A DNA stretch of 63,967 nucleotides, the filler included, from Collodictyon triciliatum (lineage: Eukaryota), in NCBI GenBank assembly GCA_043381765.1. It is 5 parts of 5 records of this genome, joined end to end, with 100 filler letters (N's around TTAATTAATTAA, not from the genome) between each part and the next. Parts side by side here need not be neighbours in the genome. Positions count along the whole stretch, not along the records: positions 14,510 to 28,917 come from JBHJMP010001821.1; positions 29,018 to 43,423 come from JBHJMP010001822.1; 3 more parts are not named here. The stretch is one strand, 5' to 3'. Below, piece after piece: positions 13,846 through 45,337 of the stretch. The translations under genes were made by a program, and so were the position numbers. The notes under the pieces are model-generated. The model was not told where the DNA came from. It made no database searches and worked only from the letters and a program-made list of their open reading frames with translations. Each line of letters opens with the position of its first letter. Positions within the stretch are counted from its first letter, which is position 1.

Positions 13846-14453
13846 ATCTTGTGATTGCGTGAGTTTCTGTGTGTCTGTGTGTTTGTGTGTTTGTGCGTCT
13901 TTGCGTTTCCTTCTGTCACAAGACGCTTCTCCTGGCCTCGTCAGTGTACAGAATGTTTGTGTGCGGATTCTGAAAAAAAAAAAGGTCGATACTCAGCTGT
14001 TAAAGCTAAGAAAATTGTTAAAACTAGACCTTTTTCTTTGCTGTTTTCTTACTCTTCGTGTGTTGGTGCTTTTCGCTTTTATTCAAAATACTATTTCGTA
14101 GTTTCAATCCCGGATTTCTCATGGTTACTCAGTAAGCCAGCTATTGGGTGTGTAATTGAAGCATAAATAATATAAATTCCACATTAAATTTCATTGAAAA
14201 TCATGGGTTACGAGTACTTCCCAAAACCTTGCCCACACTCCATTTATTATCCCGCTTGTTGTGAGGGGACAAAGAGTCGCAGACTTGATAAGCGTATCTC
14301 GCCGCCGGGCAATCCGAATGGACGAGTGCAAGGAATCTTCCACACGTTTCCAAGGGGCTATGCACAATACTTTCAATACACTCTCGGACGAGCGCCCTGC
14401 GTAATGCTTNNNNNNNNNNNNNNNNNNNNNNNNNNNNNNNNNNNNNNNNNNNN

Positions 14454-14465
14454 TTAATTAATTAA
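14454..14465. other. Artificial contig linker TTAATTAATTAA inside an N spacer (also 28962-28973, 43468-43479, 57971-57982)
   Basis: An identical six-frame-stop 12-mer sits in the centre of four ~100-nt N blocks. Confidence 0.95.
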
Positions 14466-15250
14466 NNNNNNNNNNNNNNNNNNNNNNNNNNNNNNNNNNN
14501 NNNNNNNNNGTTTGATCAAGCCAGAACGAACGCAGCACCAGGCGACCACTCCAACCCGATAACAGGTCTTCGATATTAATACTTACTATTTGATATTAAC
14601 ACACTCCAAGGAAAGGTTCGAATAGTGATTCAAAAGGAAAGAAATAAATATAACCAGAGCAGACACTTGATGAAAGCCCAGCAGCGCAACAACCACAGCC
14701 GGAGCCGTTCTCACCCACTTTCCACTTCTCTTTCCGATCGCCTCTCCTCTTTTCGGCCTGAATTCAGCATATGTGGAACATTGTGCAATTTGTTTGGCCG
14801 GGTTGGAATTCACACGGGATAACGCACCAAAACACATCCCCAATTTATCCAAACACACAGCAAAACCCGGCTGCATCGCACTGCTGCGGAAATCCTATCG
14901 CTGAAGCAGGCGTTCGGCTGAATCGATATCACGAGAGGCGGCTGGTGGCTTGAAATAGGTCGGCGTGTGGGCCAACTCTGCTTGCTCCGGGTGGTTGCTG
15001 AGGCGCAGTGTGGTGTGATGTGATGTGATGTGATGCCTGATGGCTGTCTCAATTGCAGATATCGCCGGCATCCCATCATGCGCCTCATAGAACTAATTCA
15101 CCTAATATCACAACAATGCTAATATACTTCACAGCGTGAAAAGATATAAATTAAGAGGAAAAAACGAAAAAAAATGGAAGTAGAGCCTTATCATGCATGC
15201 AACAGTATGGTTCCGCTTGGATGATATGCATATATCTTTCATGCAAAGTT

Positions 15251-15306
15251 ACCAAAGCCAACATTTTCACCATCCTGCACAAAATTGAAAGGAAGAATAA
15301 AAAAAA
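15251..15306 (+). mobile_element. Family A LINE 3'-end stub with A-rich tail; 15-bp TSD ctttcatgcaaagtt (15236-15250 / 15307-15321)
   Basis: Insert accaaagccaacattttcaccatcctgcacaaaattgaaaggaagaataaaaaaaa lies between exact direct repeats and matches the LINE 3' UTR at 33121-33175. Confidence 0.92.
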
Positions 15307-15952
15307 CTTTCATGCAAAGTTCAACAAAAGTAATCTACCTGGATATCCCAGGGCTTATAACCACAGAAGTTGTGAATATAATGAGTTCAGAGTTCCGCTT
15401 ATACAATATTATTTAATTTGTTTATTTGATAATGCACCAAATCAATGATGGACACTGTGATTACTCTTTGGCAGATGAATTCGATTCGATTAATAATAAA
15501 TGTATTAATTTTTTATTGTGTTCAGAGGAGGAAAAATTCAACTAGAATGATATTGAAAAAGTCAAATACACACCAACAAAAATAATCTTTCAAACCGAAA
15601 ACCGGAATGGGCAAGAGATAAAGAAATTACATATCGTGAGAGGAACAGATAAAAAAATCATGTGCCGAAAGCTCGAATTTAATAGACAGATATACATATA
15701 CGATTAAGGAAAAGAATAAAAGAAGCACATGCATACATAATAGAGTTGCGAATCAAATAGAATTCGTGGATTTCACCATGAATATACATCTGACAATAAT
15801 GGTTTCTCCAATCAATACTCTTTTGCAAAATAATAATACAAGGGAAAAATACAAATGATAATGAAATATATGCAGCTCGATGAAGTTAAAGCTTTTGCAC
15901 ATATGTGACGCACGGAACACAGAGGAGAACACTGGCAACACGAATAAAGCCT

Positions 15953-17086: not shown

Positions 17087-18887
17087 CAAGCAATGGTGGA
17101 CTCTGCATTTAGGTGAATGCGCTCTTGTGTTATCTTTCCTTTCTGCTGCCTCTTTTTTATCATTTTCAGTCCATACCACAAACTTCATTTCGCTCAGTTT
17201 GTGCGATTATTAGATATTTTTGAATCCTTTTCTTCTTTTTTGCATGGCGATGCAAGGATGCCTCTTCTTCCTTTTCCTTTTCCTTTTCCTTTTCCTTTTT
17301 TTTTTTTTTTGATTCTAGTATGAAAATAATCGACCAGCAAAGCGGGAGAATAGGAACGAACGCCAAAGCGGTGTTATGAAAGATATGTCGAGAGACATGG
17401 CCTTTCATACCCCGTCTGCTTCTCCACCAGCACGAAAACTTCGTATAAAAAAAGAGTGATTGATGATTGATGATTGATGATTGATTGGGTTGGCTGATTG
17501 GTTAGTCAAATGATTGATTACATGATAGCTGCCACCAACCCAACAGAACTGGTGCGGCTATTTATGAGCCAAAAACCCGGCGGTGGATTTGGAGGGGCCA
17601 CGGGTCTCTGGTCTCCACAAAAAGTGGCGCCCCACAGACCATCGCGGTTATTTTTTATTTATTGATATCATTTATTTATTTGGATTGCTTTTCCTTCACA
17701 AGACAAAGCTTTTTTGATTTGGAGAGAACAAAATGCTCGGCGGACGCCACACAAACACACCACGAAGAGCCCGATTCACATATCATTTATTTTTTCTACA
17801 ATCAGCAAATTTGGCAAATTTGCAGTTTGTTGTCCGAAGCGAAAATCCAGGTATGGAATAGATCTACCGATTTGTCCTGAACAGGCTCAGATCGATGCAG
17901 CACCAGATCAGTATATTTTCTGTGTATTCACTTGTCCAATTCCTACACACCCACACACTTGCGTCACGGAAGGGACAAAAAGGTCAACAGAAACCAACCA
18001 CATCGCCACAAAATAAAACGCACGAAACTCACGTTATTGCGTTATGCCGCTCCCTTCGTTTTTTCTCTTTCTCGATCCCCCTTCAAAGATACAACCCAAA
18101 CCGCAGATGAGCAACCAAAAGTCTAATCGATACTCAAATAGACCAACCTGCAAAACAGACACAAATAAACATGTTTTATGGCCTCGGAAATATGGATAAA
18201 GAATAATGTTCCGAGGGAAAGGGAGAGAGAAAGGGAAACAATCACGCCATGTATTTGCGTAGATGGGAAGCGAAGCCAATTAATTCACGGAGTTCCATAA
18301 TTCAATATCAGCACACATGTTGGAGAACTCCACAATGCAGACTGGGGTTGTGGGGTTTCTCGTCTTCTATGAGCAAGGGTGGCTTTGGGATGATTCAAAG
18401 AAAGCTCATCAGCAACGAGGATTGGACCGAGCTCGTGGGGGCGGTGGGCGAATTGGAGGGAGCAAACTCTTTGGAGGATCTGCTGATTCACTGCGGAATT
18501 CCAGCTGGAAATCTCCAAAGTGAGCCACTACTGCATTCGCATGGCTACAGTGAATATCGAAAGATGCTCATTAGCGATGTGGTTGTAAAAATGACAAAGG
18601 CACTGAAAGGAAAGTTTATATTGCTGATGAGTTTTCTAGGTTCAACTGAAACACTAAAGCATATCAATAAAGTTAGCAGTAAATTCAAAAGTGACACACT
18701 CGTGTGAATTAAAATGGTGATACTAAAACCCAGAGTATATTTAAAAGACGCGTAAAGGTAAAGGCACGAGTGATTCCCAATTTATAACAATAGGAAATCG
18801 CATATTTGAGAGTGTGGATGACAGCAAATGCACTATTTCTTGTTTTCTTGGCCGAAATTTTCTCACTTATTGATGGTATATCTCATA

Positions 18888-21800
18888 TCACGAAAGAAAC
18901 AAAAGAAACAAAAGAAACAAAAGAAACAAAAGAAACAAAAGAAACAAAAGAAACAAAAGAAACAAAAGAAACAAAAGAAACAGAAGCTGAAACTGAAGCA
19001 TGATGTAGAGGCAATAAAAACAAATCAAAGGCACGGTTGCCTCTGACAAAGCCAACCTGTGATTGTGAGGTCGCGCAGCTGTTCCGTGGGCCGGGACATA
19101 GAAGCCAACATTTGAAATACTTTGGAAGCTGGCATGTGACTCAACTTCTGATGCTTCGTACTCAGAGTGTGGCGAATCATAATTGCGAGAATAGACGTGC
19201 GACTGGTGCTGAAGGTAGGGTTGGAAGTGGCTTTCATTATCCATGCGTCGTCGACCGGATTCCTTTTCTAAATGTTACGATTGTTACATAAACTTTTTTC
19301 TGAAATGATTGCTTACAAAAAGTTGCCTAGGGGGAATCTATGTGCCGCTTTGGTGATAAAGAATCATATACCACGAAGCCGCATGTTTTTTGAAGCAGTG
19401 TTTCCATTGAGATATTGGCTGGTAGTCTTGAATTTGGGAGCTGGTGACGTTGGACTTAAAGTAGATGCATGGGGCAATGAAGCAGGTGGTGGAGATGGCG
19501 AGTAGCATGCACGCACAGTATTCAGTCCATTTCGAATGGCCAGAGACTTTAATGGGGATTGCATAGACTTGGTTGGTGATGCCGCGAATTCGTCCTCAAC
19601 AAGTTTTCGGGTGATTCTGAATTTTAATGGATAGTCATTTTTAATGCCGTATTTGGGAGATTTGGATAATAATGGCTACCTTGTATTTTGTATGCTTGTT
19701 GTAAGATTGGTGATGTAGTCAATCTGGGAATGGCTTGTTTGAAGACTCTTGTGCTTATGAGATAAAATTACTATTTGAAACATATCTTTTGAATCGAATA
19801 AAGAAAAAAATAATGGAAAGATAAACTTAGAGAAATATCCTCATCAAAATAATCACACACATCTCCTTGATAAGGAGAAATGCCCAAATGACTTATACTG
19901 GCACAAGACTCTCTAAATTTCAAGTAAATAATGTAATTAATAGATGATTTGGCCATGAGACAAAATTCGATTTTCATTCATACTCTTTGGGGCTTAGATG
20001 GTAGTCACTTCTCCTCTGAATGTTAAATTCCGATAGCAAGGTATTTGAATTGATTTTTAGAAATTTAAAATAAGAACATAAAAACGTTCATCTATACAGA
20101 TATATTTATTTACCTTCAGTCACGAAAATAATTGATAAAAAAGCACTAATTTTACGTACTAAACTAGAGCTTTCTCCGTCAGCTGACCCGTAATCTCCTC
20201 TATTGTTTGATTTGTTTTTCAAAATTCAAAATCAATGCAGCATTACAAAGTGCGTGCTACCTTTTCTTTACATCGATGTCCATGTGAAATGATACGGATG
20301 CCTGATATAAAATTAGTATCGGTTAAAAATAAATGCCATCATCCCCACCGTCCTGCACAAAATTGAAAGAAAAAAAGGTTAAAATAAATATGTAAATAGA
20401 ATCATTTTTGATTTATCTGTGTATTAAGCAGAGCTAGACCTGTTTCTTAGCCTTGACCTCGTTCGAGCTGCATAATACGTGTTGAATTTAATTAGAATGA
20501 GATTTATTTCGACAAATACTTATGAAATAAATAAACCTTCCATCAACACGAAAAAATAGAAAGAATAAAGAGGCAAAATATATGAAAATAAAAAACTAGA
20601 AAATGTATTTGGTTAAATATAGGTGTTATGACAATACATTTACCTTTCATCATTCCTGGGTTCTTGCTCAATTTTAGTTGGAGACAATTCTGCAATTGTT
20701 GCAGGGGTTGTGAGCATGTTTTTGGGTAGTGCAAATATGGAACCACTTCGTTCAACTCTTTTCTGTATCATTTCATCCATCTGGGATCATATATTGTCAT
20801 ATTAAAGCGATAAGCATGAAATCTTTAGTAAAATTATTCCAAAAAGTTTAAAAAATAATCGTGAGCATGAATAATTGTAAAAATAACTATCTTTCATCTC
20901 AACTTTGAATCGAATAAAGGAAAAAAAAACTATCTTTCATCTCAAAAGGCAGTAGATTGAGTTTTAGAATAAATTAAGTAATGGGTTGTCGTATAGGTTG
21001 ATGAAAAGTAACAAGTCTTGCTAAAAAAGAGAACTATTTTCACCTGCTTCACTTGCGTTAAAACCAACGTGCTTCTTCTGCGATACATCTCTCTTTGTAT
21101 CTCTGAGAAATTACCCATTTCACGGATTGTGATGTAGGAGGCGGAAGAAATGAATAATTTTAAGTTTAAAAAGATTAGGTCAATTAGTTACTTGATTTTA
21201 ATGTATCCAGCGCATTTTTGTTTGGATTGGGGAAAATGATCCATTCAGTTTTCAGTATTTGCTTTCGATTACTGCAATATCTCACCCATATGGTCTACTT
21301 TTTCTGAATTGCTTGCAGGTACATTCGTATCGGGTGGTAAATTGATAGTAGGGGTCTCTAGATCTTGTTGGCCTGCAAGATTTGGTGGTGACACGAGGTT
21401 TAGTTCTAGTATTTCTTGCCACTTCGTTCTGTTATCAACAAGACGGCAGCAAGTCTCTTGAAGTCCATCCAAAATTAGTCCTAGCGAAGTAAACAGCGGA
21501 GACACCAGAAAATCGATGAAATTCAAGGACGATTTTGCCTACATTTTTGCATGATTATTATTGCTATATATTTTGACTTATACATGAACCATGATATCAA
21601 TTCATATAAAGTCAGGTCAACTGTCCTATTATAGAATAAAAATTGTAAAGCTAACTGAAAGTTTTTTTAAACATCTTAACTCAATTCATTTGTGTTTTTT
21701 CTTACCTGATTAGAGTCTTCTCGATTCATAAATGGGGAGATTGTTAGATTGTATTTCTTTTCCAAGTCTCCCTATAAATTAAAATCATGGAATTTACTTT

Positions 21801-24800: not shown

Positions 24801-25553
24801 TACGAAAAGGCAGCATAGTTTTTTGACTTTTTTTTTTAAAAAAAAGAGGCATACAAGCATGAAAGGGAGGAAGGGAGGAAGGAAGGAATGGAGGAAAGAA
24901 AATCATATGAAGCTACATTACTTGCGTAATTGCTGTTGCAATATTTGATCTGATTAAATCCTGTTTCTGGAGCTCTGCATCGAGTAATCTTTTTTGAATG
25001 GCGAGCTGGCTACTCATGGTAAACAACTGCACTCTTAGGCTTGATATTTTCTAGACGATAACAAACTAAAATAAGATAAACACCCAAACAAGGCTAGCAA
25101 ACCAAAGCCAACATCTTCACCATCATGCACAAAATTGAAAGGAAAAAATAAAAAAAAATAAAAAAAAAAAACACCCAAACATCCATAAAGATACATTCAA
25201 AGTATTTTGAATGATCAAAAGCTAAATCATATGCAGAAGACACCCACTTCATCCTTCAATATAAGTTGGGAATTCAAATCCTTGTTCTCCAAGACTGCCT
25301 TCTGATACAAATAGAACTGCTCTTCAATAGATAACGCCTGGAACTCCTCTAACGATTCAACACTAGAACAAGATATATGTGACTTGAATCCATTTTATAT
25401 GCTCACATCCCCAACAAAAACGGTAGAGGATACAGCGAACGGTAGTGCAGTGGGAAGGAAAAGGCCAGCAGCGCGCAAAGCCTCCAATGCTAAGCTCTGA
25501 TTGGTGGCCTACCTCATCTCTGGGGCATCGTCTTTTCCAGATGACTCGCCCAT
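18888..25553 (-). CDS. Class I 3',5'-cyclic nucleotide phosphodiesterase (many small exons; both ends approximate)
   Basis: Spliced catalytic motifs [89 protein letters not shown] and [13 protein letters not shown] at ~21400-23200. Confidence 0.9.
18892..18981. repeat. 9-bp tandem repeat (AAAGAAACA)n, about 10 copies
   Basis: Directly visible; it explains the spurious (KET)n/(LFL)n ORFs. Confidence 0.95.
19787..19810 (+). mobile_element. Probable family B retroposon stub (tttgaatcgaataaag + A-run); no TSD recognised
   Basis: 16-nt identity to the TSD-flanked insert at 20903-20927. Lies in a PDE intron. Confidence 0.55.
20335..20376 (+). mobile_element. Family A LINE 3'-end stub; 13-14 bp TSD ggttaaaa(a)taaat (20321-20334 / 20377-20389)
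   Basis: Insert gccatcatccccaccgtcctgcacaaaattgaaagaaaaaaa. The two TSD copies differ by one A. Lies in a PDE intron. Confidence 0.85.
20903..20927 (+). mobile_element. Family B retroposon 3' stub; 18-bp TSD aactatctttcatctcaa (20885-20902 / 20928-20945)
   Basis: Insert ctttgaatcgaataaagg + A-tail between exact direct repeats. Lies in a PDE intron. Confidence 0.85.
25091..25168 (+). mobile_element. Family A LINE 3'-end stub including the ORF2 stop codon; 13-bp TSD aaacacccaaaca (25078-25090 / 25169-25181)
   Basis: Insert aggctagcaaaccaaagccaacatcttcaccatcatgcacaaaattgaaagg + long A tail. The ggcTAG corresponds to the last codon and stop of the ORF2 at 33170. Confidence 0.92.
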
Positions 25554-25946
25554 ATTCGAAGACTTGTATATCCTCGCAAGCATCCTCGGTATCGCTAAAG
25601 AAAAGGAAGGGTCAACCACGAGCCAGGAAATCCCAAAGGGAGCTCGTACTGACGAAGGCTGGTGGCTGGCGGGTCTCCTAATTCGCCAAACAACTCCATC
25701 TTGCTTTGCACTCGAACGTGGAAGAGTGGAGCAAGAAAAGCGAGAACAGCAGAGAACGTATACCTTTGGTTCTGCTGGGCATGTGTGGCAGAACCTCAGC
25801 GCGTAGCACTCTCGGCTACCGTACGCGTTGCCATATTTTTTTAAAAAAAAAAAAAACTTTGCACCAGCAAAGAAAAAACGAAAAACCAAGCAGCATACAG
25901 ATTATAATAATTATATTTATATAATTGACCCATGAAATCAAGAAGA

Positions 25947-26020
25947 GGTTTTGTGGTGTAGTTGGCTATCACATCCGCTTGACATGCGGGAGGTCCTCAG
26001 TTCGATCCTGGGCAAAACCA
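25947..26020 (+). tRNA. tRNA-Val, anticodon GAC (25981-25983), no intron
   Basis: Cloverleaf: acceptor GGTTTTG/CAAAACC, D arm GTG..CAC, anticodon stem TCCGC/GCGGG with loop TT-GAC-AT, T arm CTCAG-TTCGATC-CTGGG, discriminator A. Followed by a T6 Pol III terminator. Confidence 0.93.
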
Positions 26021-26333
26021 CTCTTTTTTGCCATCGTGCCCTTCCTGTCCTTCTGCTTATGCGTGCTTTTTTTTTTTAAACTAGTCTTTACTTCTCTTTT
26101 ATTTTATTTGCTGAGTATGTTTGGTGGAGGTGGTTTTCCTTTTCTATGGCGCAGAAGCCCTCACATCAACCCAGCAACCACAGCCATTGAAGGCTGGCCA
26201 AGTGTGCTCCTTGACCAGAAGCTCCTTTAAAAGCTGCTTCAAGAAAAGTGTGCGAAGCAGGAGCAGAGTGGATAAGGGTCTTGCGGGAGCTGTTCACACA
26301 TCCCTTGAATACTGACATAGTCGCTCTGTTCTG

Positions 26334-26467
26334 ATGCTTCGCTCAATATACCCTGTCAGACCGTTTCTGACTCGAGCGCTGATGTCGTGGACTCCAGTTC
26401 AACAAGAAGCACCAGGTCTGTTTATTACTGCAATATCTTTTATTTATTCGTCTATTTGTCTATTTGT

Positions 26468-26526
<59 letters not shown>

Positions 26527-28832
26527 TTCCTATTATTACCAAAATTTCTTTCTTATATTTAACCTGTACATCCTAAATAATTATTACAACAATAATAATA
26601 TATACAAATGTCCTTTTTTTTTCTATTTGCGGACTCATGCTGGGTGGTACGCGAAGGTGATGTTTGCCAGGGCTTTTGGGTAAAAAGTTCCTCAGACTCC
26701 TTGAGTTTGTCAGTAAAGCTTTGGAAATCCGAGCAGTTGGCGCAGCAGCCAAAGAACATGCTTGTCATGATCCATGCAACAGGTTTCATTTCCATTTGTT
26801 TAGTATCCACTGTATTTATTTTTCGTTCTTACAATCCTGGTATATTTTTTGCATAAATTATGGTTAGGCTTTTGCAAAGAGCAGTGGGTTCCAGTGATAA
26901 AATACATGAGAGCACATGGCGTATGTATAATATAATTTCTAGGATAAATACCTCCAAACGATCTTAATCAACTGTTTAATTCCTTGAATACGGAATCAAT
27001 TGCATCTTCTTTCTTTTTTTTTTTTTTCGTTTTTTTTTTATCAGATGCACGACCCGATTGTTGCATTCGATGTTGTGTGTCACGGAGACTCAGACACTCG
27101 TCCTGGAAAACTTGACTGGAACCAATTCGCTCAAGTATTTCCTTTCATTTGTCGTCCCTTTTATCTGTGTATAAGAAAATGATATATCTTTTCTGTTCAA
27201 TTTTTTCAATTCCATAAAACTACTTCTTAAGGAGTAAACCTGAATACTTGGACTTCATTGTTCCATTTCATAGTGTGATTGATTTACATCCCCTTAAAAA
27301 AAAAAATAGCTAACATTACATATATTCTCCATAGGATTCCATTGATGTTATCAAATATATGAAACCTAAAGTTGCTGGTCCTGGTGAACCAATGAACGTT
27401 TTCTTAATGGGTCATTCGATGGGAGGAGCTATTTGTACTCTAGTTGATGTAACAGTTTAAAAATTCTCTTTAATTTATATGAATATGTAGCGTGCTAATT
27501 TATAACTGATTTGATTTTTTTAAAAATGCATTTAAATTACCTCTTGATTTTCTTATATTTTCATACAAACATACTTAACAAAGTATTACAATTTAGCGCC
27601 TCGACCCAACAGTGATATCTAAAATGTTTTTGATAGAACCTATTATACTACCGGCACCAAACAATAGGTTTCTGCAACAAAAAATAATAATAATAATCAT
27701 AATTTCTACAAATATCTCTTACAGTCCTTTTTAGTTTTAAATCATCTGATTTATTCAATCTAAATATACAGAAATGAGGATTTTTTCCTTGCAAAAATGG
27801 CCCTCAAAAGACAAGCCACCTTTCCCAGCTACCAAGCTATGTATGAAAGGTTTCGGGTAAATACTCCGTTTAACTATGCCTTTATTGAATCAAATTCATT
27901 TGGTTTCATCGGTTAGAGCTCTTGTAACTGCCGTACTATTAGTTGATTAGATGAATTATTCCCGGTTTGATTTGCATCTGAGCAATCTAATTGAGTTTAA
28001 TTTGGAAAAAGTGAAGTTGTCTAAACTGCCGTCATAAATAACTTTTAGTCGAAGCCTCCTTTTATCACTTTTGATGATGAAGCCCTCCGTTGTTATATTC
28101 AGAACGGAGCCAGAGAGGTTACAATATATAAGAAAAACATATACCTTCATTTTGTATAACATCATCATTTTGCTATAATTCTATTGCCACATCTTATTTG
28201 CAAAACTTTTTTTTTTCCTTTATTCGAAATCTTATTTGCAAAACTTAAACACCTTGATTATCATTGATTTAAAATTTAAAAATTGAAGGCTGCCGATGGA
28301 AAATCAGTCACCCTCAAATGCACCCCCGAGCGAGAAAGCGAGTTTTATTGCACTGGTATACTTGCTCACACTCTCTACATGTTTTGGTGTTTTGATTGTT
28401 TTGATTGTTAGTTTTTTTTGGCATATACTTTATTTTTTCCTTGATTTTCTCCATCTTCTGAGCTCAATTTGAGCTCTTAACACCTTATAGGCTCATCCCA
28501 CGACATGATTTTGTATCTGGAAAAATCAAAGACCCCAACGATGTTTTCTGGCGGAGAGGTTATTTGTTATACCATACGCCGTAGTCTATTTATTTGTTTG
28601 TTTACTATAATCGACTTTGAGCAACTTCAAATCCACTTTTTTTCGAAAGTTTTATTCGCCAAATGTTAAAGCCACTCCCGGTTAGAAGCTTAACATGGTG
28701 CTTCTCATTTAGAAAACCGACACCTACCCGATGGAATATCTGCAAAGTCTCCAATCCAGGTGGGGCGGCCCTTCTTCCATGTTTGTCTTCCCAGGAGCGT
28801 CTCATTTTGTTCCAATGGAGCAGCCTCAACGG
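26334..28832 (+). CDS. Alpha/beta hydrolase (Abhydrolase_6-like), multi-exon; last exon lost at the gap
   Basis: Spliced motifs LVMIHATGFCKEQWVP, VAFDVVCHGDS, FLMGHSMGGAI (nucleophile elbow), MFLIEPII, VTLKCTPERE and FPGASHFVPMEQPQR (catalytic His). Confidence 0.9.
26467..26528. repeat. (TTTA)n microsatellite, intronic
   Basis: Directly visible. Confidence 0.95.
28209..28228 (-). mobile_element. Family B retroposon 3' stub; 18-bp TSD atcttatttgcaaaactt (28191-28208 / 28229-28246)
   Basis: The minus strand reads ttcgaataaagg + A-tail between exact direct repeats. Lies in a hydrolase intron. Confidence 0.85.
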
Positions 28833-29017
28833 GTATGACTGCCTTGAAAGCTTATATGTTTACCCCCCCCCCCCCCCCCAAAAAAAAAAATAAAAATGTT
28901 AGTTATTTTTTTTTAAANNNNNNNNNNNNNNNNNNNNNNNNNNNNNNNNNNNNNNNNNNNNTTAATTAATTAANNNNNNNNNNNNNNNNNNNNNNNNNNN
29001 NNNNNNNNNNNNNNNNN

Positions 29018-30170
29018 AAGAGCAGTGTTTAGGGCCTCTTTTCTTTTTTGGGGGTCGTTAATCCCCCTAACGTTCCACGACAGAACGTTAAAACGCATGA
29101 ATAATCTATTGGCTTTTGGAGGCCGTAGCCTCCGGTGATTGGCCCTCTCCGCTGGAGCTGGGTTGCTCAGAGTGGGATGGTTTACTCGAGTTATCTTTAA
29201 TTTGGCCGGTGTTATAATTGCTCGCGGTTCGGCCAGGATTTGTCGGATGGTCTTGGGCTTTTGGGCTGCAACCCCTTTGTAGCTGGTGTGTTGGGAGATG
29301 CACTCTGTCGGTCACTAGAAACCCTCGGTTCCAATTTTTCTCCCTCATCCACGCGGTGGGCAAGGCTACCCATGTTTCCACTTTCATTTTGATATGCTTT
29401 CTGGTTCGCTATATTCGGTGGTGTACTTGACTGATTCATTCTCTTTTCATCGGGCGAGGCTTTATCTTCGACGTTTTCGGTTTTTTTTTTGTGCGCCGGT
29501 GATTGCAGGATGAGTAACCGGTGTTTTATATTCATCTACGTTTCTTTTTCTTGGATAGGAAGCCGTTTCTCGCTGGGGAGTCGGAAGAGTTTCGACAGTA
29601 GGTCTGGTCCCATAAACAGTACTTGAGGAGTAATTTGTCGTTCTCGAAGCTTCAAGGTGCTCACTTTCTTCTTCAGCAGAACCTTCTATGACGACGACAG
29701 GTTGGATGGACTGTTGTTCTTCCAATTCCGAATCTAGGACGTTGCTTCTTATCGATTACACAGTACTTGCTGAAGAAAGAGTCTCTTGTGTGGTTCCAGG
29801 AGTCATGACCTCTAAGGAGGCTAGTGGATGTGGTTTGCTGGGTGCCATTATGCTGTTTCCCGATTCTGTTACCGAGTTGGCTTGGGTTTCCCTTTCCTCG
29901 GAATCCTCTTCATGGTTTAAAGGAGAGCTTGGTGAGATATTATCGGCTTGAGGAGGTTGGAAATCTTGGAGGTTATTGATGTTTCCTCCACATCCTTGAA
30001 GCCATTTCACGATTTCTACTGCTTCCTCTGTGTTCAATGGTGAACTTGATGCACTTTCGGGAAAATCGCCTGGTGTTTCGTCCATCATTTCGCTATCCAT
30101 TTCTTGATTTTGGGGCCGCTCTTGAACCTTTGTCTTGATTGAGACTTCGAGCACTTTGTCTGCGGGTTTC
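29018..30170 (-). mobile_element. Decayed L1/Tx1-like non-LTR retrotransposon: ORF1 C-terminal part and start of the ORF2 APE endonuclease
   Basis: ATG at 29098 reads MRFNVLSWNVRGINDPQKRKEALNTAL into the gap, which is APE endonuclease motif I (SWNVRG). Upstream by 7 nt, a low-complexity frame ends (TAG 29108-29106); it is broken by an in-frame TAA (29758-29756) and two frameshifts. Confidence 0.85.
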
Positions 30171-30375
30171 TAGTCACGCTTGATTGCCATACAACGGCAG
30201 AAAACGATGAAAGGGCAGAAGAGAAGTTCCGAAGAAGACCGCCGTTCCCTTATTCCTGCGTCATGTGTTGCATATGTGGAATTTACATTATTTACAATTT
30301 TGGCTCTAATTATTCACGTCCTCAACAATTTATGCAATCATGGAATATTTCAGTTTATAACTTGTATTTCTGTTG

Positions 30376-30423
30376 CCAACACCTCCACTATCCTGCGCAA
30401 AATTGAATGGAAGGATAAAAAAA
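30376..30423 (+). mobile_element. Family A LINE 3'-end stub; 17-bp TSD aacttgtatttctgttg (30359-30375 / 30424-30440)
   Basis: Insert (g)ccaacacctccactatcctgcgcaaaattgaatggaaggat + A tail between exact direct repeats. Confidence 0.9.
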
Positions 30424-30899
30424 AACTTGTATTTCTGTTGATTTCAGTAAGGATGAAAATAATAACCTTCAAACAAGCCTCTGCTCAGCTATAAAACGAA
30501 CACAAATGACGCACACAAACCCACACACGTCATGTGTGAGAAATGAAAAATGAAAACACTATTCATTCCTTGACAGGTGTAAATCCAACGGTTAATGAGC
30601 ATTGTCCAAAAGCATTCTTCAGCCGAAGCAACTGCAAAAGCGAGCCTTTTCCTTCTCATAAAGGATATGTGACTCACTCGCAACATGGTCATTAGTCTGC
30701 CTTCTCACAGCCTCTCTATTTTCCTTCCTTCGAGTATTCCTCCTGATCCATTTTCGAAGCCCAATCACAGAACAATATGTCTGATGTAGCTCACCAACAC
30801 ACAAACTAGACCACTTGTCCTCGCAGAGAATGTCTGTGGGAAACAAAGCGTCCAACGAGCAACGAGCAACTGTCACCTGAATAGATTGCGCCTTTGGAT

Positions 30900-32230
30900 G
30901 AGCTCCGAAAAATAGTCGGGCTCGAAGCGTCTCCTCGTTAAAAAGCTCCACGAAACTAATTCTCTCATCCAAAGGGCTTGCAGCTGTGCCCAGTGGTGTT
31001 TTCTTGTTGGATCGCGTGAAATCCATGTGGATCAATGGCAACCAGTTGTCGTCACTGCCGCCAGAGATATCGCGTTTGACTGGTCTTCAATTTCTTAGTG
31101 TCTTTAACAATCCGGTATGCTTTTATTTATTTGTATTCTATTTTTATCTTGTTTACTTAAAAATTGACTGACAACGATGCATATAAAGATGGAGGCGCTT
31201 CCATCCTAAATCACAGCACTCACGAATCTGATTAGTCTTAGTGTCAAAATTTATGGAACACAAACTATTAAAATAGCACCGCGCGGTATCACAAATCTTC
31301 CTGTGTGGAACAACACACAAGACTATGATTATAAAAACATCTGTGCCCTGCGGCTGTACGACCCTGTAAGCCCCGAAAACATTCAAAAGTTTTATCTGAG
31401 TGGAATTGTAATATAGAACCTAGATAATAAGGCGCCTTCAGGTTGACACCTCGACCGATACTGCAACTGAAACCATTTAAGCCAAGGAAGCTTCCAATGC
31501 TACATGAATGGATAAATAAATTAATAAAAATATAAAGTTGATGAATGCTGTTGGGGTGCAACAGCATGTGAACACTTACATTCATCTTTTTCTAAATATT
31601 CTATTGCAATACAAAAAGGCCATCATCATATAGCAAAATAACGCATTTCCCAGCCCCTAGTCACATGTAAGTGCGTAGACCTTCTAAGCACACATTCTAA
31701 GAAGTGAAAAAGCACAATGGACCAAGAACTTTCATCATTCTTCAAAAAGTACAATGCGTTAGGAAACAACATGAAAATCGAGTACGGGCTACATATCATT
31801 TAGAGCCTTGTCCATCCCCATACAAGGTTGAATACCATCCCGCACCTCGAATTAAAGACTAACAGTTTTCTGCTCGTAAGCAGCATTGATACACTGACCG
31901 GCTGTAGGCTTTTGAAGGGTGGCTTGTTTGTCAAATCAATGAGCGACCTCAAAAGCTCTAAGAACTGGTAGACATCCGAGGTGTTTGAAATACGTTATGA
32001 AACATTAATGAATGGCATCTTGTGCAAATGGTGATCTGGTCTTTGCTAAGTAGTGAATATATGAAATAATGTGTGAATGATATGAAGGCCAGAACGAGGG
32101 TAGTGAGTTATAAGAACTTGCTTTCTCCGTAATCTATTCTTATAAGCTTGCTTCTCTGATTCACATACTCTGGCAAAATATAACCATTATCCCAATCATT
32201 TCCAATCGGTCGAAGCTAAGTTTGAGCTTA
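30900..32230 (+). pseudogene. Decayed LRR + TKL-type protein kinase gene
   Basis: LRR exon TKLILSSKGLAAVPSGVFLLDRVKSMWINGNQLSSLPPEISRLTGLQFLSVFNNP|gtatgc at ~30950-31114. From 31717 a stop-ridden frame reads IEYGLHII*SLVHPHT..IPHLELKTNSFLL..NW*TSEVF..KW*SG, and later LASLIHILWQN. These resemble kinase subdomains VIa, VIb, VIII, IX and XI. Confidence 0.6.
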
Positions 32231-33120
32231 TGATTGCCAACGCAGCAACACTCCCAGGATACTCATGTGGATAGTCAACGAGTTGAAAAGTGCAGACGTG
32301 CTATCCCACGTAAATTGAATAATATACCTTCGCAATATTGATGCAAACTTGCATCGACAACGAAGTGACACTTGTGAGTTTGAACTGAACGAAGAAAACT
32401 GAATTGAACTTCTTCACGACACTATGGACTCACCCACACCTACAGTGATTGATAATCATGACCCTTCATATTTTCCTTCTCTATATCGATTGATTTTTTT
32501 GGATTTTTTTTGGAGAATCAGCAAGACCTGTAGATTTTTTTTTTGTTTACTATCCTCGTGTTTTACGATCGAAGGATAAATGGGGAAAAAGGCATCATTG
32601 AAATAAACTATCAAAACATCAAATTTTACTTCAGCTCATAAAATGCTAATATTACCTGGTACACCATGTAGATTAAGAAAAGCATATTAACCCTCGAGAC
32701 CGTGCATCTCAGTTTTTATTTTGGATTTAAGGCGATTTCTAATAAACTCAGCTAAATTGCGTTGACTATAATACTGAGTCCTCTATTTGGAAGGGAACTG
32801 ATCATCTACAAAAACTCTTAGACACATCTGTCGGGACAATATGCATGTGTGATTAACAAGTGCACATCTCCTGTGGAAATGATCATTTATCTTAAAGGCG
32901 AGGACAACCAACCACTGGTTTGAGAAATTGAATATACTCGTATACAGAAACAATTTATTGCAATTTAATATATTTATTTGTTATTGAGCTTAGGTATCCC
33001 TAAACCTCAACTTATATGCTAATAAATAATTAGAAATCACTATTTGAGCAACTTCGTATGCTTTTATATATTATTCGGATGTAGAGAGTGCTTTGTTTCC
33101 TGGCTGGTAATTTTTAACTA

Positions 33121-33578
33121 TTTTTTTTTTCAATTTTGTGCATGACTGAGGGATGTTGGCTTTGATTTGCTAGCCAGCGTTTGCATGGACGCCAATTGGT
33201 GGCCGGGTGGTGAAGAAAAAATCGGTAATCAGGAATTGCATCCTGCGGTTTGGCCTGTAGCCTGAGTCTTGTGATTGTGTGAGAGATACAAGGCGAGGTT
33301 TAATATCTTGCTCAGCCTCTTTCCACATGTCTCTTCTCACGGGGTCGGAGTAGTAGAGAACGTGCAGGTGGCGAAGGAAGTTGTTGAGGAAAGAGATTTG
33401 TATGATGCCATCCAGCCTGTTATCAGAAATGGGTGGCTGGTTGTTGAGTCTTGCTTTGCGTGAGTATATGCGCACTATCCACATAGTCCATAGCAAATGG
33501 CCTCGCGTCACTGCCCAGAATGTTTTTGCCTCTCGATGCAGCTGTTGCAGAGGCCAAATATCGCCTGGATTGGGCCAA
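33121..33578 (-). mobile_element. 3' end of an L1/Tx1-like LINE (ORF2 C-terminus, 39-nt 3' UTR, A10 tail); parent of family A stubs; continues into the N gap
   Basis: Open frame from the gap to TAG 33172-33170 containing FWAVTRGHLLWTMWIVR, which resembles the Trp-rich motif at L1/Tx1 ORF2 ends. It is followed by caaatcaaagccaacatccctcagtcatgcacaaaattg(A)10. Confidence 0.8.
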
Positions 33579-34662
33579 NNNNNNNNNNNNNNNNNNNNNN
33601 NNNNNNNNNNNNNNNNNNNNNNNNNNNNNNNNNNNNNNNNNNNNNNNNNNNNNNNNNNNNNNNNNNNNNNNNNNNNNNNNNNNNNNNNNNNNNNNNNNNN
33701 NNNNNNNNNNNNNNNNNNNNNNNNNNNNNNNNNNNNNNNNNNNNNNNNNNNNNNNNNNNNNNNNNNNNNNNNNNNNNNNNNNNNNNNNNNNNNNNNNNNN
33801 NNNNNNNNNNNNNNNNNNNNNNNNNNNNNNNNNNNNNNNNNNNNNNNNNNNNNNNNNNNNNNNNNNNNNNNNNNNNNNNNNNNNNNNNNNNNNNNNNNNN
33901 NNNNCAATAAAAGTATTGATTTAACATTACTTAAATGTCAAGTTACAGCTTGTCAAACTTAGAAAGTCCTACAACTCGAAATCAGATTCCACGAGACAGA
34001 TAAAATACTATTACATTATTGAAAATTAACCCAGTATACAAACTAAATCTCCAACATTTTTAAAGTGAAAATATTCAACAAGCAATCCGATTAAATAATT
34101 ATATCAATAACCCTTTTTATGATAAACACTTCATGATATAATGGAAAATATAACTCAGTAATGTAAATTCTCGGTGATATTTTTTTTTTTTTTTGTGAAA
34201 ATCAGTGTTTTTAACGAATGTAGAAAATAAAAATACACAGCCTTTCAAGATACCACGTGATAAAATTTTTCAATTGTTTTCAAATAAAATTAAAAAATAA
34301 TATCACCTCAAAAATATGAATCATTGCCAAAAACTGTCCATCATTAAGTGGCGACCATCACTTAAATCATGGAAACTGCTCGGGTTCGGTCATTGCCCGG
34401 CAATTAAGGAAACTTGAAAATATTCGAGAAAAGAACCGATTAAACTATCAAGAAATTGATTTATGCTTCTACATTTTTGGTGTTGGTGTTTTAGGTTCGT
34501 TTCGGTTTGTGGTGGGCTAAACGTCAAACCCACACAGAAGCAAGCGAAGATTTTTTTCACACATCCGCTCACAAAACAATCGAAAGAAGACCAAAGAAAG
34601 CGACACCAAAGAAGCACAATAAGTAACTTAACTATCTCGATAACCGGCCATATAGCCCAGAC

Positions 34663-36770: not shown

Positions 36771-37764
36771 ATGATCGTTCCAAGGGCACTGNNNNNNNNN
36801 NNNNNNNNNNNNNNNNNNNNNNNNNNNNNNNNNNNNNNNNNNNNNNNNNNNNNNNNNNNNNNNNNNNNNNNNNNNNNNNNNNNNNNNNNNNNNNNNNNNN
36901 NNNNNNNNNNNNNNNNNNNNNNNNNNNNNNNNNNNNNNNNNNNNNNNNNNNNNNNNNNNNNNNNNNNNNNNNNNNNNNNNNNNNNNNNNNNNNNNNNNNN
37001 NNNNNNNNNNNNNNNNNNNNNNNNNNNNNNNNNNNNNNNNNNNNNNNNNNNNNNNNNNNNNNNNNNNNNNNNNNNNNNNNNNNNNNNNNNNNNNNNNNNN
37101 NNNNNNNNNNNNNNNNNNNNNNNNNNNNNNNNNNNNNNNNNNNNNNNNNNNNNNNNNNNNNNNNNNNNNNNNNNNNCCGAAAAGACTCAATATATTGCCT
37201 ATTCTCTCCTCTGAAATATTTTTGTTATGCTCCATGTTGTTTACTTACGGTGTCAAATAAAGACGGGAATCAGTGGAATCCTGAACAACGCGTTTGTTAC
37301 TCCAAATCCTGAGAAGCAGTGGAGGTTATACTGTTATTTTATTTACTTATTTATTACTCCTTTTATTGTTTTTATTCATTAGCTTGTTTGTTTGTTTGTT
37401 TGTTTGTTTGTTTGTTTGTTTGTTTGTTTGTTTGTTTGTTTGTTTGTTTGTTTGTTTGTTTGTTTGAATATTCCTCGTTTCATTTATTTTCACTTTATTT
37501 CTACAACTCTTTCTTATATTTGCTTCATAGTAAAACAAAAAAATGCTTATATCATGTATCTGTTCAGCTTGTTGTGCTGACTCCCATACTTGTAGATACT
37601 CGTTTCTGTCTGGCCTTTTGTCGGGCGGTCTCGTCATATCTGCTTTCAGGCCGGAGTGGATCGGTCCGTTCTCAACTAGTCTGCCTATCACAGCTCTCGC
37701 CGGATTCTCAGTCGGCATTGGAGCACTGGTATCTATAAAACAACCTTTAATTAGCTAGACTCCT

Positions 37765-37845
<81 letters not shown>

Positions 37846-39672
37846 GCAGCATCAACATCATCTATAATATAGCAAACCACATGCGCCTTTCTTTCAAACT
37901 GAACAAATATCCATTCGATAACTCAATGCTTGAATGGACATTACGAATCAATTAAATAGAAGAAAAAAAACACGTAATTTCGAGCAAAGAGGAGAGAAAA
38001 AACTTCTTTTTTTTTAATTTTCATGATTATTGGATTGATTGCTTGCAGAAGAAATGATAATGCCGGATATATTGATCGCCTATATTACTTTGCTATCAAG
38101 CGTATCGCCCTTATGTACGTTTTTATCAGATGGGAAATGGCTGCACAAGTGGACACGGACTTTGTGGACTTCCACGCTTCTCGATTCGCTCCTTCGCAGC
38201 AATCGCAACATTTATGATAAGCGGCTCTGTCGCTGCCATCCTTCGAACCAGGATTTTCCCTTCTGAAGTTTTGAGCACCTCCATCCCTATCATTCCAAAT
38301 GCCTCGTAAGTTCTATTGGTTCTATGCCAAAGTGATTTAATGAATCAGATAGAAATAAGAATGCGTATGTTAGAGCCATGCTCCAAATATTTCAAACACA
38401 CTATTACGTAGCATATATAACTGATGTGAAAAAAATACAGATTCATCGTTGGATGCTGTGCGGCTTTGCTCGCTGTTTTATCCTTGATTTCGAAACCGCA
38501 ACCTAAAAAGACGGATGAGTATGAGTTGATAAATATGTCTGTCTATCAATCCCCTCTTTTATTTTATTTTTTTGTTTTAAGATTATTTGGCCAAAAAAGA
38601 GTTCCTTTTTTTTTCAATTGATTAATTGGACAAGCAAAGACTGCGATATTCTTCAATTTAATGTATGTGGCTATAGTAGCAGTTCGCAACACGAAGAAAG
38701 CATTATCGATCTGCTGCTCTCGTATGCCACTGGTCTAATTTTTGGAATCGGCCTTGGTGTGAGTGGGATGTAAGAAGAGTATATTTTTTCAGAAATGACT
38801 TAAGCTATTCATATATCTATTTGTGATCTATAAGTAGTGTGTTTATGTTGCGATTGGTAGCTTTACTATTTTCTTTTGCTCTTGTAATTTCTTTCACATG
38901 AAAGGTGTATTCCGGATAAAGTCATTAATTTCTTGAACTTTGTTGATAACTGGGACCCCTCATTGATGTTCGTAATGGCCTCTGGTGTACGTTTATGAAT
39001 CTTTTTGTTCTGAGTGATTCATCGGCGTTTCTATATATTTACTCTTTCGCAGGAGAATACGACATCCCATGATTATCAGACACACACCTCTTTTTTCTTC
39101 TGGAATAGTAACTGTCATTCATTTATGTTTATCTCCAAATTATTTACACAATAGGTTTTAATCAACGCACTGACATTTGCTAAAACGCTTAAAACGGAGA
39201 CACCACTCCTTCGACGAAAGTTTGTTGTTCCGACAAACAAAAAGATTGATTTGAGACTATTGCTTGGTGGTGTCTTTTTTGGTTTAGGTATCCCATTTCT
39301 TCTCAGTTTACTTTACGCATTTCATTCCCTAAGAAAAAAAACGATAATGTAACTGCTTTTACGTGCTTCATTATACATTGAATTGTTTTTTGTTTTTGTT
39401 TTTGTTTCCAAATCGCTTCGTTCAGATTTTATTCGCAATGTAAAAAAAAAAAATCATGATTTGTCAAGGTGGGGTTGTTTTTTGCGTCAAAAGAATGCAG
39501 TTTAACAAAATATAACTGTGGTTCAGGTTGGGGCCTTGCTGGACTCTGTCCCGGACCTGGCATTGTTGGTTTGGCGCAAGGAAGCTATGCATCGGTGGTT
39601 TATCTCTGCGCTCTGCTAGCTGGATTCAAGACCGTCATTATTCTCGACGGACTCAACATCCTACCAAAGTAG
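36771..39672 (+). CDS. YeeE/YedE-family sulfur-compound transporter, two-module fused form, multi-exon, spanning an N gap
   Basis: Module 1 splices as [60 protein letters not shown]. Module 2 splices as [58 protein letters not shown]. The start MIVPRAL at 36771 is tentative. Confidence 0.9.
37384..37465. repeat. (TTTG)n microsatellite, intronic
   Basis: Directly visible. Confidence 0.95.
37767..37843. repeat. Long poly(A) tract, intronic
   Basis: About 77 consecutive A inside a YeeE/YedE intron. Confidence 0.95.
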
Positions 39673-41824: not shown

Positions 41825-43201
41825 NNNNNNNNNNTGAAAGGAAAGGAAAGGAAAGGAAAGGAAAGGAAAGGAAAGGAAAGGAAAGGAAAGGAAAGGAAAG
41901 GAAAGGAAAGGAAAGGAAAGGAAAGGAAAGGAATAGATAATACGCGATTTACCTCTGTCTGCCCAATAAATATATTTCCCGCACATACGAGGCTTTCTGC
42001 ACCAGATGTTTTCATAGACAACATCATTACATTCGCGATTGACCGAATTACACTTTGAATCCAGCCAAAGTGATGCAGCACACACACAAGGGCAGAGAAA
42101 AAGATAATACTTGGCAGCACCTTTAGTCATGTCAAGACAAAGCATTTTTATGAAAAGCCTAAATGTGAGATGGCATTTCTCGATTCGATTATAATCTAAA
42201 GACCGAATTACCAATACAATCAATCTACTCTTTCGTAAAATGATTCTGCACAGATAGAATTACCTTGAATGCAAAGTAGTGGTCTCGAAAGTTCTCTCCA
42301 AAAATCAGCTCTGCCCCCGCATCTGAGCTCTCTAGTAAGTCAGACACAACATCACCCACCGTATTAAAGAAATCATACCCTGGTCCTATTTACATTTAAA
42401 AAAATCATACCCTGGTCCTATTTACATTTAAAAAAATCAATAATAGATATACTTATATTGAAAATGAATAGTAGATGGGAAAATCCCCCAACATGGTCGA
42501 TTATGTTGTAAGTATTCATCTCCATCGAAACCTGTCTTCAGGATGAGAAGGGCAAATATAAACTGCAACAAAAATCCCCATGTCACGGTCACCCAATTAA
42601 TCATCGCCCGGTTGTGCGACCCGGCATAGGCCATGAGAATAAAGCCACATAGCCCAGCAGCAGAGACCGCACGAAGCCAGTTTTCTGCCAAGACATAGAC
42701 AGCAAAGACAACGACAGATGCAGCTACAATCATAAACGCTAACATCCGCGCAAGCCTCGAGGAAAACGGAAAGAAAGAGGACGTATTCATCAAGCCGGGA
42801 CTCAGAAGCGACCGTATCTCGCCCGAATGACTCAGTTGCTTGTCCTGAGCATCGGCCGAATAAAGCCCGTCTCGATTGGCCCGTCCGCCCATCCGCGTCA
42901 GTCCCGCATCGGCCATAAGCTGCTCCTGTGTCTCCATGTCCGAGACAATAAGATCGGCTGAACCGCCAATCTTACCTTGGCACTTGAGGCGCAGAAGAAG
43001 GCCCCAAGTCAGGCACATGCCTAGGAAGCGGTAGGCGCAATATGTACCGACCACGTAGAGGAGTGGGAGCGAGTCATGCAGATTGAGGATGCAGGCGGCA
43101 ACCAAGTAGCAGCCAAAGAGGCCGAGGCCGATGAGGCGCAAGGGGGTTTGGTGGAGGATGCGTGTCCACCAGCGCTGGAGTTGTATCTGGGAAGATTGCA
43201 T
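40017..43201 (-). CDS. Concentrative Na+/H+:nucleoside cotransporter (CNT / SLC28 family), multi-exon
   Basis: Motifs [102 protein letters not shown] and [13 protein letters not shown]. Confidence 0.95.
41732..41932. repeat. Adjacent (TAA)n and (GAAAG)n microsatellites, intronic, with a short N gap
   Basis: Directly visible. Confidence 0.95.
42370..42433. repeat. 32-bp tandem duplication spanning a CNT splice acceptor
   Basis: Two copies of aaatcataccctggtcctatttacatttaaaa. Confidence 0.9.
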
Positions 43202-45337
43202 CCTGTGTTGTGCTATTGTGTGTATACTTGCTTGCGGTTGTTTTTGTTTGGAGACAGTTTTCTATTTTCTTTTCCTTCAATGTTCTATTTTCTTTTGCTT
43301 GACACCTTTTTCTTTTTCTTTTCTTTTTCTTTTTTCTTTTTTTCTTTTTTCTTTTTTTCTTTTTTCTTTTTTTCTTTTTTCTTTTTTTCTTTTTTCTTTT
43401 TTTCTTTTTTCTTTTTTTCTTTTNNNNNNNNNNNNNNNNNNNNNNNNNNNNNNNNNNNNNNNNNNNNTTAATTAATTAANNNNNNNNNNNNNNNNNNNNN
43501 NNNNNNNNNNNNNNNNNNNNNNNTCTCTTTTTTTTTATTCTCTTTTTTTTATTCTCTTTTTTTTTATTCTCTTTTTTTTGTTCTCTTTTTTTTATTCTCT
43601 TTTTTTATTCTCTTTTTAGTGTTTGTATTGGCTTTATTCATAAATGTAGGCTTCAATGGAAAGATATCAAAGGATGAGGAGATCAAGCTGTTGAGCATGA
43701 AGTTTTTCATTCAGCGGGCGAAATATAGGGGGTATTAGCGTGAAGTTTGAAAGAGTGAATCGCTCTGGCGTGCGAGTATACATTCTTCAAGGCTCACGGG
43801 CATGGAGGGCATGATGGGGAAAATACATATAGCTTTGTGATATCACTTGATGAACTTGGTTTTCTATCTAAAAAAAACCCCCGACTTGGAGGATATACCA
43901 GATTTATCTGCTCCTTTTTTTTTTTTTTTTTTCGGTCGGGCGTTTTTCAGGGGTGGCTTCGAATAAATGTTAACAGACTCTGTATTTGAGAGCTCAGTAA
44001 GACTCCTCTGGGTCGTGGAGGGCTTGGATAATGGCACTGATTTGAGAAAAAAGACTATGGGATTGAGCCAGCCCAATGTCAGAAAAAGACCCAGTAGCTT
44101 CATCGGATTGGTTGCTTTGGTTGGTTGTGCTATGATTGCTTTGATAGGACGATGAGCAAGTAAATCCCGCATCAACTTTTGCCAGGAGTGACATTGGGGG
44201 CGGTCTTGTTTTGAGCGTAGGCTTCGGAGGTGTCTTTGTTTGAAGAGTCATTCTGCTTTTTGACCTGTTGATGGGTGTTGTGTGTATTCCTGAGGATAGG
44301 CTTTATGGGCTACTGGCTCCAGTCGGAACTTGCTAAGTTTCTTTCTTATGCGGCTGAAGTGCGTCCTGGGTTTTGTGGTGAAAGAAGCTTTATCAGAAGT
44401 AATCGACTTTTATGTTAGACACTAAGTTTGTGTTTAACCGACATATCCGATGGGCGTATTGTTTGCATGTGCGCAGCCGTGTAATTATTTGGCCATCTTC
44501 GGAAGACCAACCAAAAAAAAAAAAACCAAAAGAAAAAAAGGGAGACAGATAGATGAGCCGCGTCGCTAAACAGCGAATTGCTCATCGTGTGTGGTGGTGT
44601 TTGCTTCTTGTGACATTTACCCGAGTTCAAGAAGGAGGTGCGGATCGAGTTAAATATGTGTGGGAGTGTTGCGCCTCCAAGATGTGCTATGGTTTGCCCA
44701 AATAACGACGTGTCTAGTAGGTCGAGAATTGCAAGTCGGTGTGCGTCATGCTTACACGAGCAAGATGCATTTATGTACTGTCGTATGTGCCAACCCATTA
44801 TCCGTGTCTTGCGCATGAAGCAACATATGTTCTGTCTACCCAGCCGGAACACACGACAAGGTCTTATCCTCCTTCTCCGCAGTAGTCTGCTAAACAGTCG
44901 TCTCATTTATACCCTCTGTCCTTTCCTCCATTTCTTTTCTTTGGTTTATGATTCACTTGAGTCAGAGCAAAAGGACGGCATTCTGATTGGAGATTGTGCG
45001 TATGAGTTTGGCATTTTTTTTGCGCCGGGTGGTTGTCCACTGTTAGTCCTTGCCTGTTGCGGCGTCATTGGGCTTTGTTTAGGCTACTTCTGGCGCTGCT
45101 CTGCGGTTTTTGTGCGTCACAAGCGTGTCACGCTGCATCACACGATGCGTCACGATACGTCACCTGTAGCAAAGTTTCTGCATTGGGCGAAACATCCACT
45201 GATGCCCTCTGCTACGGGATGCCAAATGTGGACCCAATCTACACCTTTTATGAAAATCTATACCCATGTAGGTAATGTGCTACAAACTCGAATTCACTCA
45301 TTTACATTCTCCGATTTATGAAATGTTATTTGGCTAT

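Follow-up and report, generated by a model that had tools for sequence, protein, structure and literature searches.

Truncation at the 5′ end is common among long interspersed nuclear elements (LINEs); its cause is still debated (PMC10830420; PMC3747384); the defective members of a family usually measure 100–1000 bp (PMC3747384). The ORF2 protein (ORF2p) is described as processive, and host cleavage of the RNA or of intermediates has been put forward as the more likely cause of truncation (PMC10830420), while short retrocopies of messenger RNA (mRNA) 3′ ends have been attributed to truncation or degradation of the template (PMC2831318). For the joining of the 5′ end, “direct” and “annealing” modes have been distinguished, together with a length of target-site duplication (TSD) that is specific to the LINE (PMC4245944). 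Here, we describe a dispersed repeat family in a 63,967-nt stretch of DNA from Collodictyon triciliatum (assembly GCA_043381765.1), referred to below as the window, in which five stubs of 42–78 nt accompany a single copy of at least 458 nt that enters an assembly gap. We read the stubs, with a probability that we put at roughly 55%, as dead-on-arrival products of target-primed reverse transcription (TPRT) of a poly(A)-tailed LINE, with a 3′ untranslated region (3′ UTR) of 39 to ~50 nt that ends in a 14-nt core, in which synthesis of the complementary DNA (cDNA) ended early.

The core, TGCRCAAAATTGAR, occurs six times in the window with at most one mismatch (at 15276, 20354, 25126 and 30394 on the plus strand and at 33129 and 45352 on the minus strand), against 0.39 matches expected, and 0 of 100 shuffles of the window reached six. 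A 17-mer just upstream of the core gave five matches (0.23 expected), and when the window was compared with itself by BLAST, all seven off-diagonal matches fell within the family, making it the sole dispersed repeat found there. The stubs and the 3′ end of the long copy are collinear, and the open frame of the long copy ends where the stubs start (Table 1). An earlier, sequence-only reading of this DNA had quoted the minus strand at 33175–33121, with its TAG and A10, and had aligned it with five stubs; the stretch reads as quoted and the alignment holds, with three of the stubs lying outside the coordinates cited at the time. Shorter, tail-only stubs were not found in the window, where a 21-mer query returned four known copies and a query with the 14-mer tail two.

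Each stub carries an A tail and copies only the last 29–49 templated nt, counted to the 3′ end of the core. All five stubs and the long copy end in an A-rich tail (A5 to A22), with target DNA directly after it, and the tail begins 0–9 nt after the core. In stubs 1, 3 and 5, an AGGA-type sequence downstream of the core leads through AAT or AATAAA into the tail; in stub 4, the variant TGGAAGGAT precedes it; and stub 2 and the long copy pass straight into A's after TTGAAAG and TTGA, respectively. Abutting TSDs of 13–17 bp flank all five stubs, with no substitution and one indel over ~76 bp. Because every stub has both an A-rich tail and a TSD of this length, they are real retropositions. The 5′ junctions show 0–1 nt of microhomology by eye. 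These features establish retroposition by TPRT with TSDs of ~15 bp and direct 5′ joining, and both the TSD length, as a property of the LINE, and the mode of joining are consistent with PMC4245944.

The 5′ ends of the five stubs are all different and are spread over 20 nt around the stop codon (−7 to +13, counted from the end of the stop codon), much as the sequence-only reading had it when it spoke of ragged ends and truncation points close to the stop. The longest stub, at 25091, indeed enters the last ORF2 codon, opening with AGGC-TAG, that is, with the last sense codon (GGC) and the stop. For the others, a start 3–15 nt further 3′ had been given, which is roughly right: the measured starts are +3, +9, +10 and +13 after the stop, which places them 10–20 nt 3′ of where stub 25091 starts.

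Table 1. Positions in the window of the five stubs, their target-site duplications, the long copy and the adjacent joint and gap
Feature	Position	Strand	Description
Stub 1 TSD	15236–15250 and 15307–15321	+	CTTTCATGCAAAGTT, 15 bp
Stub 1	15251–15306	+	56 nt including A8 tail; 5′ end +3 from the end of the stop codon; 39 nt to core end
Stub 2 TSD	20321–20334 and 20377–20389	+	13/14 match, one A of a run differing
Stub 2	20335–20376	+	42 nt; A tail straight after TTGAAAG; 5′ end +9; 33 nt to core end
Stub 3 TSD	25078–25090 and 25169–25181	+	up to 13 bp
Stub 3	25091–25168	+	78 nt, longest; long interrupted A tail; 5′ end −7; 49 nt to core end
Artificial contig joint	28918–29017		N44-TTAATTAATTAA-N44 linker
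Stub 4 TSD	30359–30375 and 30424–30440	+	up to 17 bp
Stub 4	30376–30423	+	48 nt; core variant TGCGCAAAATTGAA; 5′ end +10; 32 nt to core end
Long copy	33121–33578	−	at least 458 nt; ORF tail, stop, 3′ UTR, A10; 5′ end lost in gap
Long copy, A10	33130–33121	−	poly(A)
Long copy, core	33142–33129	−	14-nt core
Long copy, 3′ UTR	33169–33131	−	39 nt
Long copy, stop	33172–33170	−	TAG
Long copy, ORF tail (P0001)	33577–33173	−	135 aa; open frame of 135 codons as far as the gap
Scaffold gap	33579–33904		326 N; conceals the 5′ end of the long copy
Stub 5 TSD	45321–45337 and 45382–45398	−	17 bp
Stub 5	45338–45381	−	44 nt; core variant with final G; 5′ end +13; 29 nt to core end

The identity of the element was approached through the open reading frame (ORF) of the long copy; measured up to the last base of the core, the visible part of this copy is at least 450 nt long. 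Because the DNA past the gap (33905 onward) is AT-rich and lacks a long ORF, the long copy is itself truncated, at 458 to ~784 nt. A phmmer search with its ORF tail, P0001, against 1.84 billion representatives returned seven relatives (P0002–P0008; E 6.8e-47 to 3e-4), all of them fragments of 52–253 aa. Four of the seven (P0003, P0004, P0007 and P0008) contain zf-RVT (PF13966; 27.8–36.4 bits against a cut-off of 27.5) adjoining the N-terminal side of the part aligned to P0001; the remaining three are too short to reach this region, which in the long copy would fall within the N gap. P0003, P0004 and P0006 stop near the C-terminus of P0001, and P0005 and P0007 extend somewhat further. Since four of the relatives carry zf-RVT and most of those that reach the C-terminus share it, the end of P0001 is probably the native C-terminus of an ORF2 of the reverse transcriptase (RT) type. 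With collinearity to the end of this ORF and with a tail and TSD on all five, the earlier proposal that the stubs are the extreme 3′ tips of an ORF2-bearing LINE is well supported by the sequence comparisons. A search for near relatives returned P0002 only; elsewhere in the window we found neither other pieces of the long copy nor tblastn matches to its protein relatives, and a collection of bacterial and archaeal contigs queried with both the DNA pattern and the protein gave no match, as expected. So far, the family appears to be known from truncated tails only.

It could be argued that no LINE is involved at all and that the long copy represents a host gene's last exon with its 3′ UTR, or a processed pseudogene of that gene, the stubs being short retrocopies of the 3′ end of the corresponding mRNA; P0001 itself has no match in Pfam, the window showed no RT domain, and short pseudogenes of mRNA 3′ ends are known (PMC2831318). 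With zf-RVT lying immediately upstream in every relative long enough to reach it, with the family found only as fragments, and with six copies from several diverged sources in 64 kb, we find this explanation hardly credible.

We then compared the six copies position by position. Pairwise identity over all of them is 200/210 (95%) in the core and 189/256 (74%) in the 19-nt flank upstream of it, and variable columns number 2 of 14 in the core versus 11 of 19 in the flank (Fisher p = 0.015), in agreement with the near-invariant core and diverged flanks of the sequence-only reading. Among the stubs alone, 132 of 140 compared core positions are identical, as are 133 of 171 in the flank, so that 46 of 311 differ, and the divergence between stubs in the self-BLAST is 7–21%. 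Had this divergence arisen after insertion, ~11 substitutions would be expected in the 76 bp of TSD, and none is seen; the differences therefore predate insertion. This points to several diverged, recently active source lineages, all of which would have kept the core, and the core itself is most likely a 3′-end signal in the RNA, serving recognition by the enzyme and/or formation of the end. RNA folding gave no signal of structure at the six 3′ ends (fold z-scores +0.74 to −1.06) or over the long copy's final 300 nt (−0.79), and the structural roadblock considered in the sequence-only reading thus finds no support.

A conserved core lying so close to the tail might also mark a tail-only, non-autonomous retroposon, in which a discrete RNA of ~50–60 nt plus an A tail, derived from a master stub or from processing of the LINE RNA, would be copied in trans by the LINE enzyme by virtue of the core that it shares with the LINE. 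Such an element would be akin to a SINE without a head or to the Drosophila suffix. A CTTCACCATCC-type flank is common to the five stubs and missing from the long copy, and there are precedents in the suffix/F element pair (PMC1868783) and in the tails that LINEs share with short interspersed nuclear elements (SINEs) (PMC3747384). Such an RNA is, however, difficult to reconcile with five copies that have five 5′ ends, that possess no promoter-like head, whose TSDs directly abut LINE-derived sequence, and that are too divergent for one master and yet retain intact TSDs; we consider it quite improbable. A SINE proper, be it derived from tRNA, 7SL or 5S RNA, was also considered and is ruled out by the missing RNA polymerase III head and the five different 5′ ends: ARAGORN finds no tRNA in any stub, Rfam gives 0 hits, and no stub contains a pair of A and B boxes (relative to consensus sequences, the B box is matched in 0 stubs and the A box once, in antisense and with two mismatches, which is at chance level). 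In this respect, the judgment that these are not classical tRNA-derived SINEs was correct.

To describe the lengths, we used a model with a detection floor of 14 nt (n = 6). The best single exponential gives the observed lengths a probability of ~9e-6, so that the smooth exponential with which the sequence-only reading had contrasted its proposal describes the window's six copies poorly. A two-component mixture is better (likelihood-ratio test statistic 10.5, p ~0.001–0.005), with a short component that has a mean of ~22 nt beyond the floor and holds 83% of the copies. The statement that most insertions abort after 30–55 nt draws on these five stubs, with their 29–49 nt to the core end, and one gap-ended copy in ~5 short contigs, and longer copies are probably hidden by the assembly.

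The assembly matters here because the window consists of ~5 unrelated contigs of ~14.4 kb each, sorted by size and joined by linkers (blocks of 14409, 14408, 14406 and 14403 nt plus a last part), so that distances from stub to stub are meaningless; in their order, the contigs hold 0 copies, 3 stubs, 1 stub plus the long copy, 1 stub and 0 copies. Ordinary 5′ truncation with no special stopping point might then suffice, the short mode being produced by purifying selection against longer inserts and by an assembly whose contigs cannot accommodate a repeat that exceeds roughly the length of a read or k-mer. The contigs are short, several of them end in microsatellites or homopolymers, the region is gene-dense, and the single long copy runs into the 326-N gap. 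Against this, the probability of finding five of five copies in a 21-nt band is ~(21/67)^5 = 0.003 by our own arithmetic even if only copies of 14–80 nt were visible; stubs that are 7–21% apart would not have been collapsed in assembly; it is difficult to imagine selection discriminating among non-coding inserts that differ by tens of nucleotides; and none of the 106 small ORFs bordering contig ends and gaps resembles an RT or an endonuclease, although the body of this LINE itself has no known sequence. We therefore regard ordinary truncation as rather unlikely.

Several observations nevertheless weigh against the reading that cDNA synthesis ended early. The sample amounts to five stubs and one longer copy, over three of the ~5 unrelated contigs; the sole long copy abuts a gap, and longer copies are likely to be under-assembled; and relatives of 52–253 aa imply that copies of 0.2–0.8 kb exist in the family. 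Of the window's 110 ORFs with 100 aa or more (129 listed, minus 19 that run over N's; one ORF was trimmed), none gave a match to an RT or endonuclease domain, nor did any of the 106 ORFs of 45–99 aa near contig ends and gaps, and none of the seven relatives of P0001 has an RT domain. Neither a full-length element in the window nor longer homologues of P0001 and P0004 were found. It should also be noted that the data distinguish neither between a shortened template and an aborted enzyme nor between a position set by the stop codon and one set by the distance to the 3′ end.

According to the reading that we prefer, cDNA synthesis would have stopped within the first few dozen nucleotides, 15–35 nt past the core. 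One possible cause is a template already reduced, by cutting or degradation, to the 3′ piece that the element's protein holds; the other is an enzyme failing as it passes from initiation into elongation. Joining of this short cDNA straight to the upstream end of the target would have followed, and in contigs as gene-dense as these, selection and assembly bias may have raised the share of short copies still further. A more specific version, which we consider unlikely, sees in the stubs an in vivo footprint: cutting or trimming of the LINE mRNA would leave a protected 3′ piece, which the enzyme, not having let go of it, would then copy. Possible sources of the cut are cleavage linked to ribosomes at the ORF2 stop codon and 5′-to-3′ decay halted by the enzyme sitting on the core and tail. 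Such ribosome-linked cleavage reaches ~12–15 nt to either side, which would fit the observed range of −7 to +13. If the footprint version were true, most integrations in this lineage would be host-aborted, and the stubs would constitute a genome-wide record of host cut sites.

The cause of LINE 5′ truncation is still open (PMC10830420), and if most events in this family do stop within ~50 nt, near a stop codon and a conserved core, they would provide a sharp natural read-out with which cleavage of the template might be told apart from failure of the enzyme, and mechanism from selection. Stubs of 40–80 nt are also easily missed in repeat annotation, and the AATAAA-like tails of three of the five could act on neighboring genes. 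The evidence at present is a small sample from a fragmented assembly. A limited literature search turned up no description of a 30–60-nt mode of LINE tails, from which we make no claim of absence.

As for the window itself, the linker N44-TTAATTAATTAA-N44 is present in four identical copies (14410–14509, 28918–29017, 43424–43523 and 57927–58026), the second of which is crossed by the span 25091–33578 of the sequence-only reading, and its central string is met in the literature together with the words “contigs” and “concatenated”; true scaffold gaps are found at 33579–33904, 36792–37176 and 41825–41834. Pfam matches (RhoGAP, Swi5, phosphodiesterase, NHL, concentrative nucleoside transporter, GDSL lipase, ankyrin and D123) are those of gene-dense eukaryotic nuclear DNA. 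Four very long ORFs, at 49774–56136 (−, 2120 aa), 209–2800 (+, 863 aa), 5560–8406 (+, 948 aa) and 12238–13992 (−, 584 aa), match no Pfam family at E ≤ 0.001, the 2120-aa ORF having only a weak match to DUF7491 (E 0.0056), and some of the four contain repeats of the Gln/Ala type. Microsatellites and homopolymers are unusually abundant, including (CTTT)n, (CTTTT)n, (AAAGAAACA)n and an A run of ~80, with such low-complexity tracts at 8459–8563, 11611–11853, 18873–18997, 37767–37846, 43235–43442 and 57724–57929. The first contig opens (1–180) with (CAAA)n and (CAAAAA)n followed by ~9 copies of AAAACCC at 89–151, an array resembling a repeat of the telomere type at a contig end.

On the element strand, the bases before the 5′ TSD (at 15236, 20321, 25078, 30359 and 45398) read ..TAT, ..TATC, ..GAT, ..TAT and ..AAT, ending in AT at four of the five stubs and being of the TT/AAAA type at none; this AT bias may reflect a nick preference of the endonuclease. 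There is no sign of tRNA gene targeting: the sole tRNA gene that ARAGORN reports in the window, a tRNA-Val with anticodon GAC at 25947–26021 (+), lies 776 nt downstream of stub 3, the nearest stub. The GAC anticodon is unusual for tRNA-Val in eukaryotic nuclear genes.

Among known systems, the dead-on-arrival copies of the LINE-1 (L1) type likewise are 3′ collinear and A-tailed and have TSDs of ~15 bp and variable 5′ ends. L1 inserts at the consensus TT/AAAA, so that its TSDs start with a run of A's. Here, in contrast to L1-type copies, the target sites have no initial A run and the 3′ UTR has a conserved core: on the element strand, the TSDs start with CTTTC, GGTTA, AAACA, AACTT and ATAGC, so that four or more initial A's are found in 0 of 5 and target sites of the L1 type can be set aside. 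A C-terminal zinc knuckle, a trait of L1 ORF2, was seen in four relatives only, at the 27.8–36.4 bits already given (cut-off 27.5), and the CCHC zinc knuckle of ORF2 also occurs outside L1. A likeness to the solved human ORF2p was sought with a profile (A1) against PDB sequences, which gave a chance match only (E 0.9), and with an AlphaFold model of P0004 (8 rows; predicted local distance difference test score 60), for which Foldseek returned 0 hits in the PDB at E ≤ 0.001, a weak test since the tail evolves fast.

The Drosophila suffix is a few hundred bases long. Like the present stubs, it is a short dispersed retroelement corresponding to the 3′ end of a LINE, the F element, and it is described as including the last conserved RT domain and as being separately and strongly transcribed (PMC1868783); our stubs, by comparison, are almost purely 3′ UTR, with ragged 5′ ends and no sign of transcription of their own. 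The LINE tails of the stringent type that are shared with SINEs, such as eel UnaL2/UnaSINE1, similarly have a conserved 3′-terminal sequence, a plausible site for the enzyme (PMC3747384), whereas here we find no stem-loop signal and no SINE head, and the tail is poly(A) rather than a short tandem repeat. Short processed pseudogenes derived from mRNA 3′ ends have bimodal lengths, for which truncation or degradation of the template is proposed (PMC2831318); their short class extends up to 300 bp, compared with inserts of 42–78 nt here, where the template would be the LINE's own RNA and the ends cluster at the stop codon. Unlike the usual truncated LINE copies, five of the six copies in the window keep just 29–49 templated nt up to the core end. 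The stubs belong to the known class of 5′-truncated LINE copies, as a new member with an unusually short length mode.

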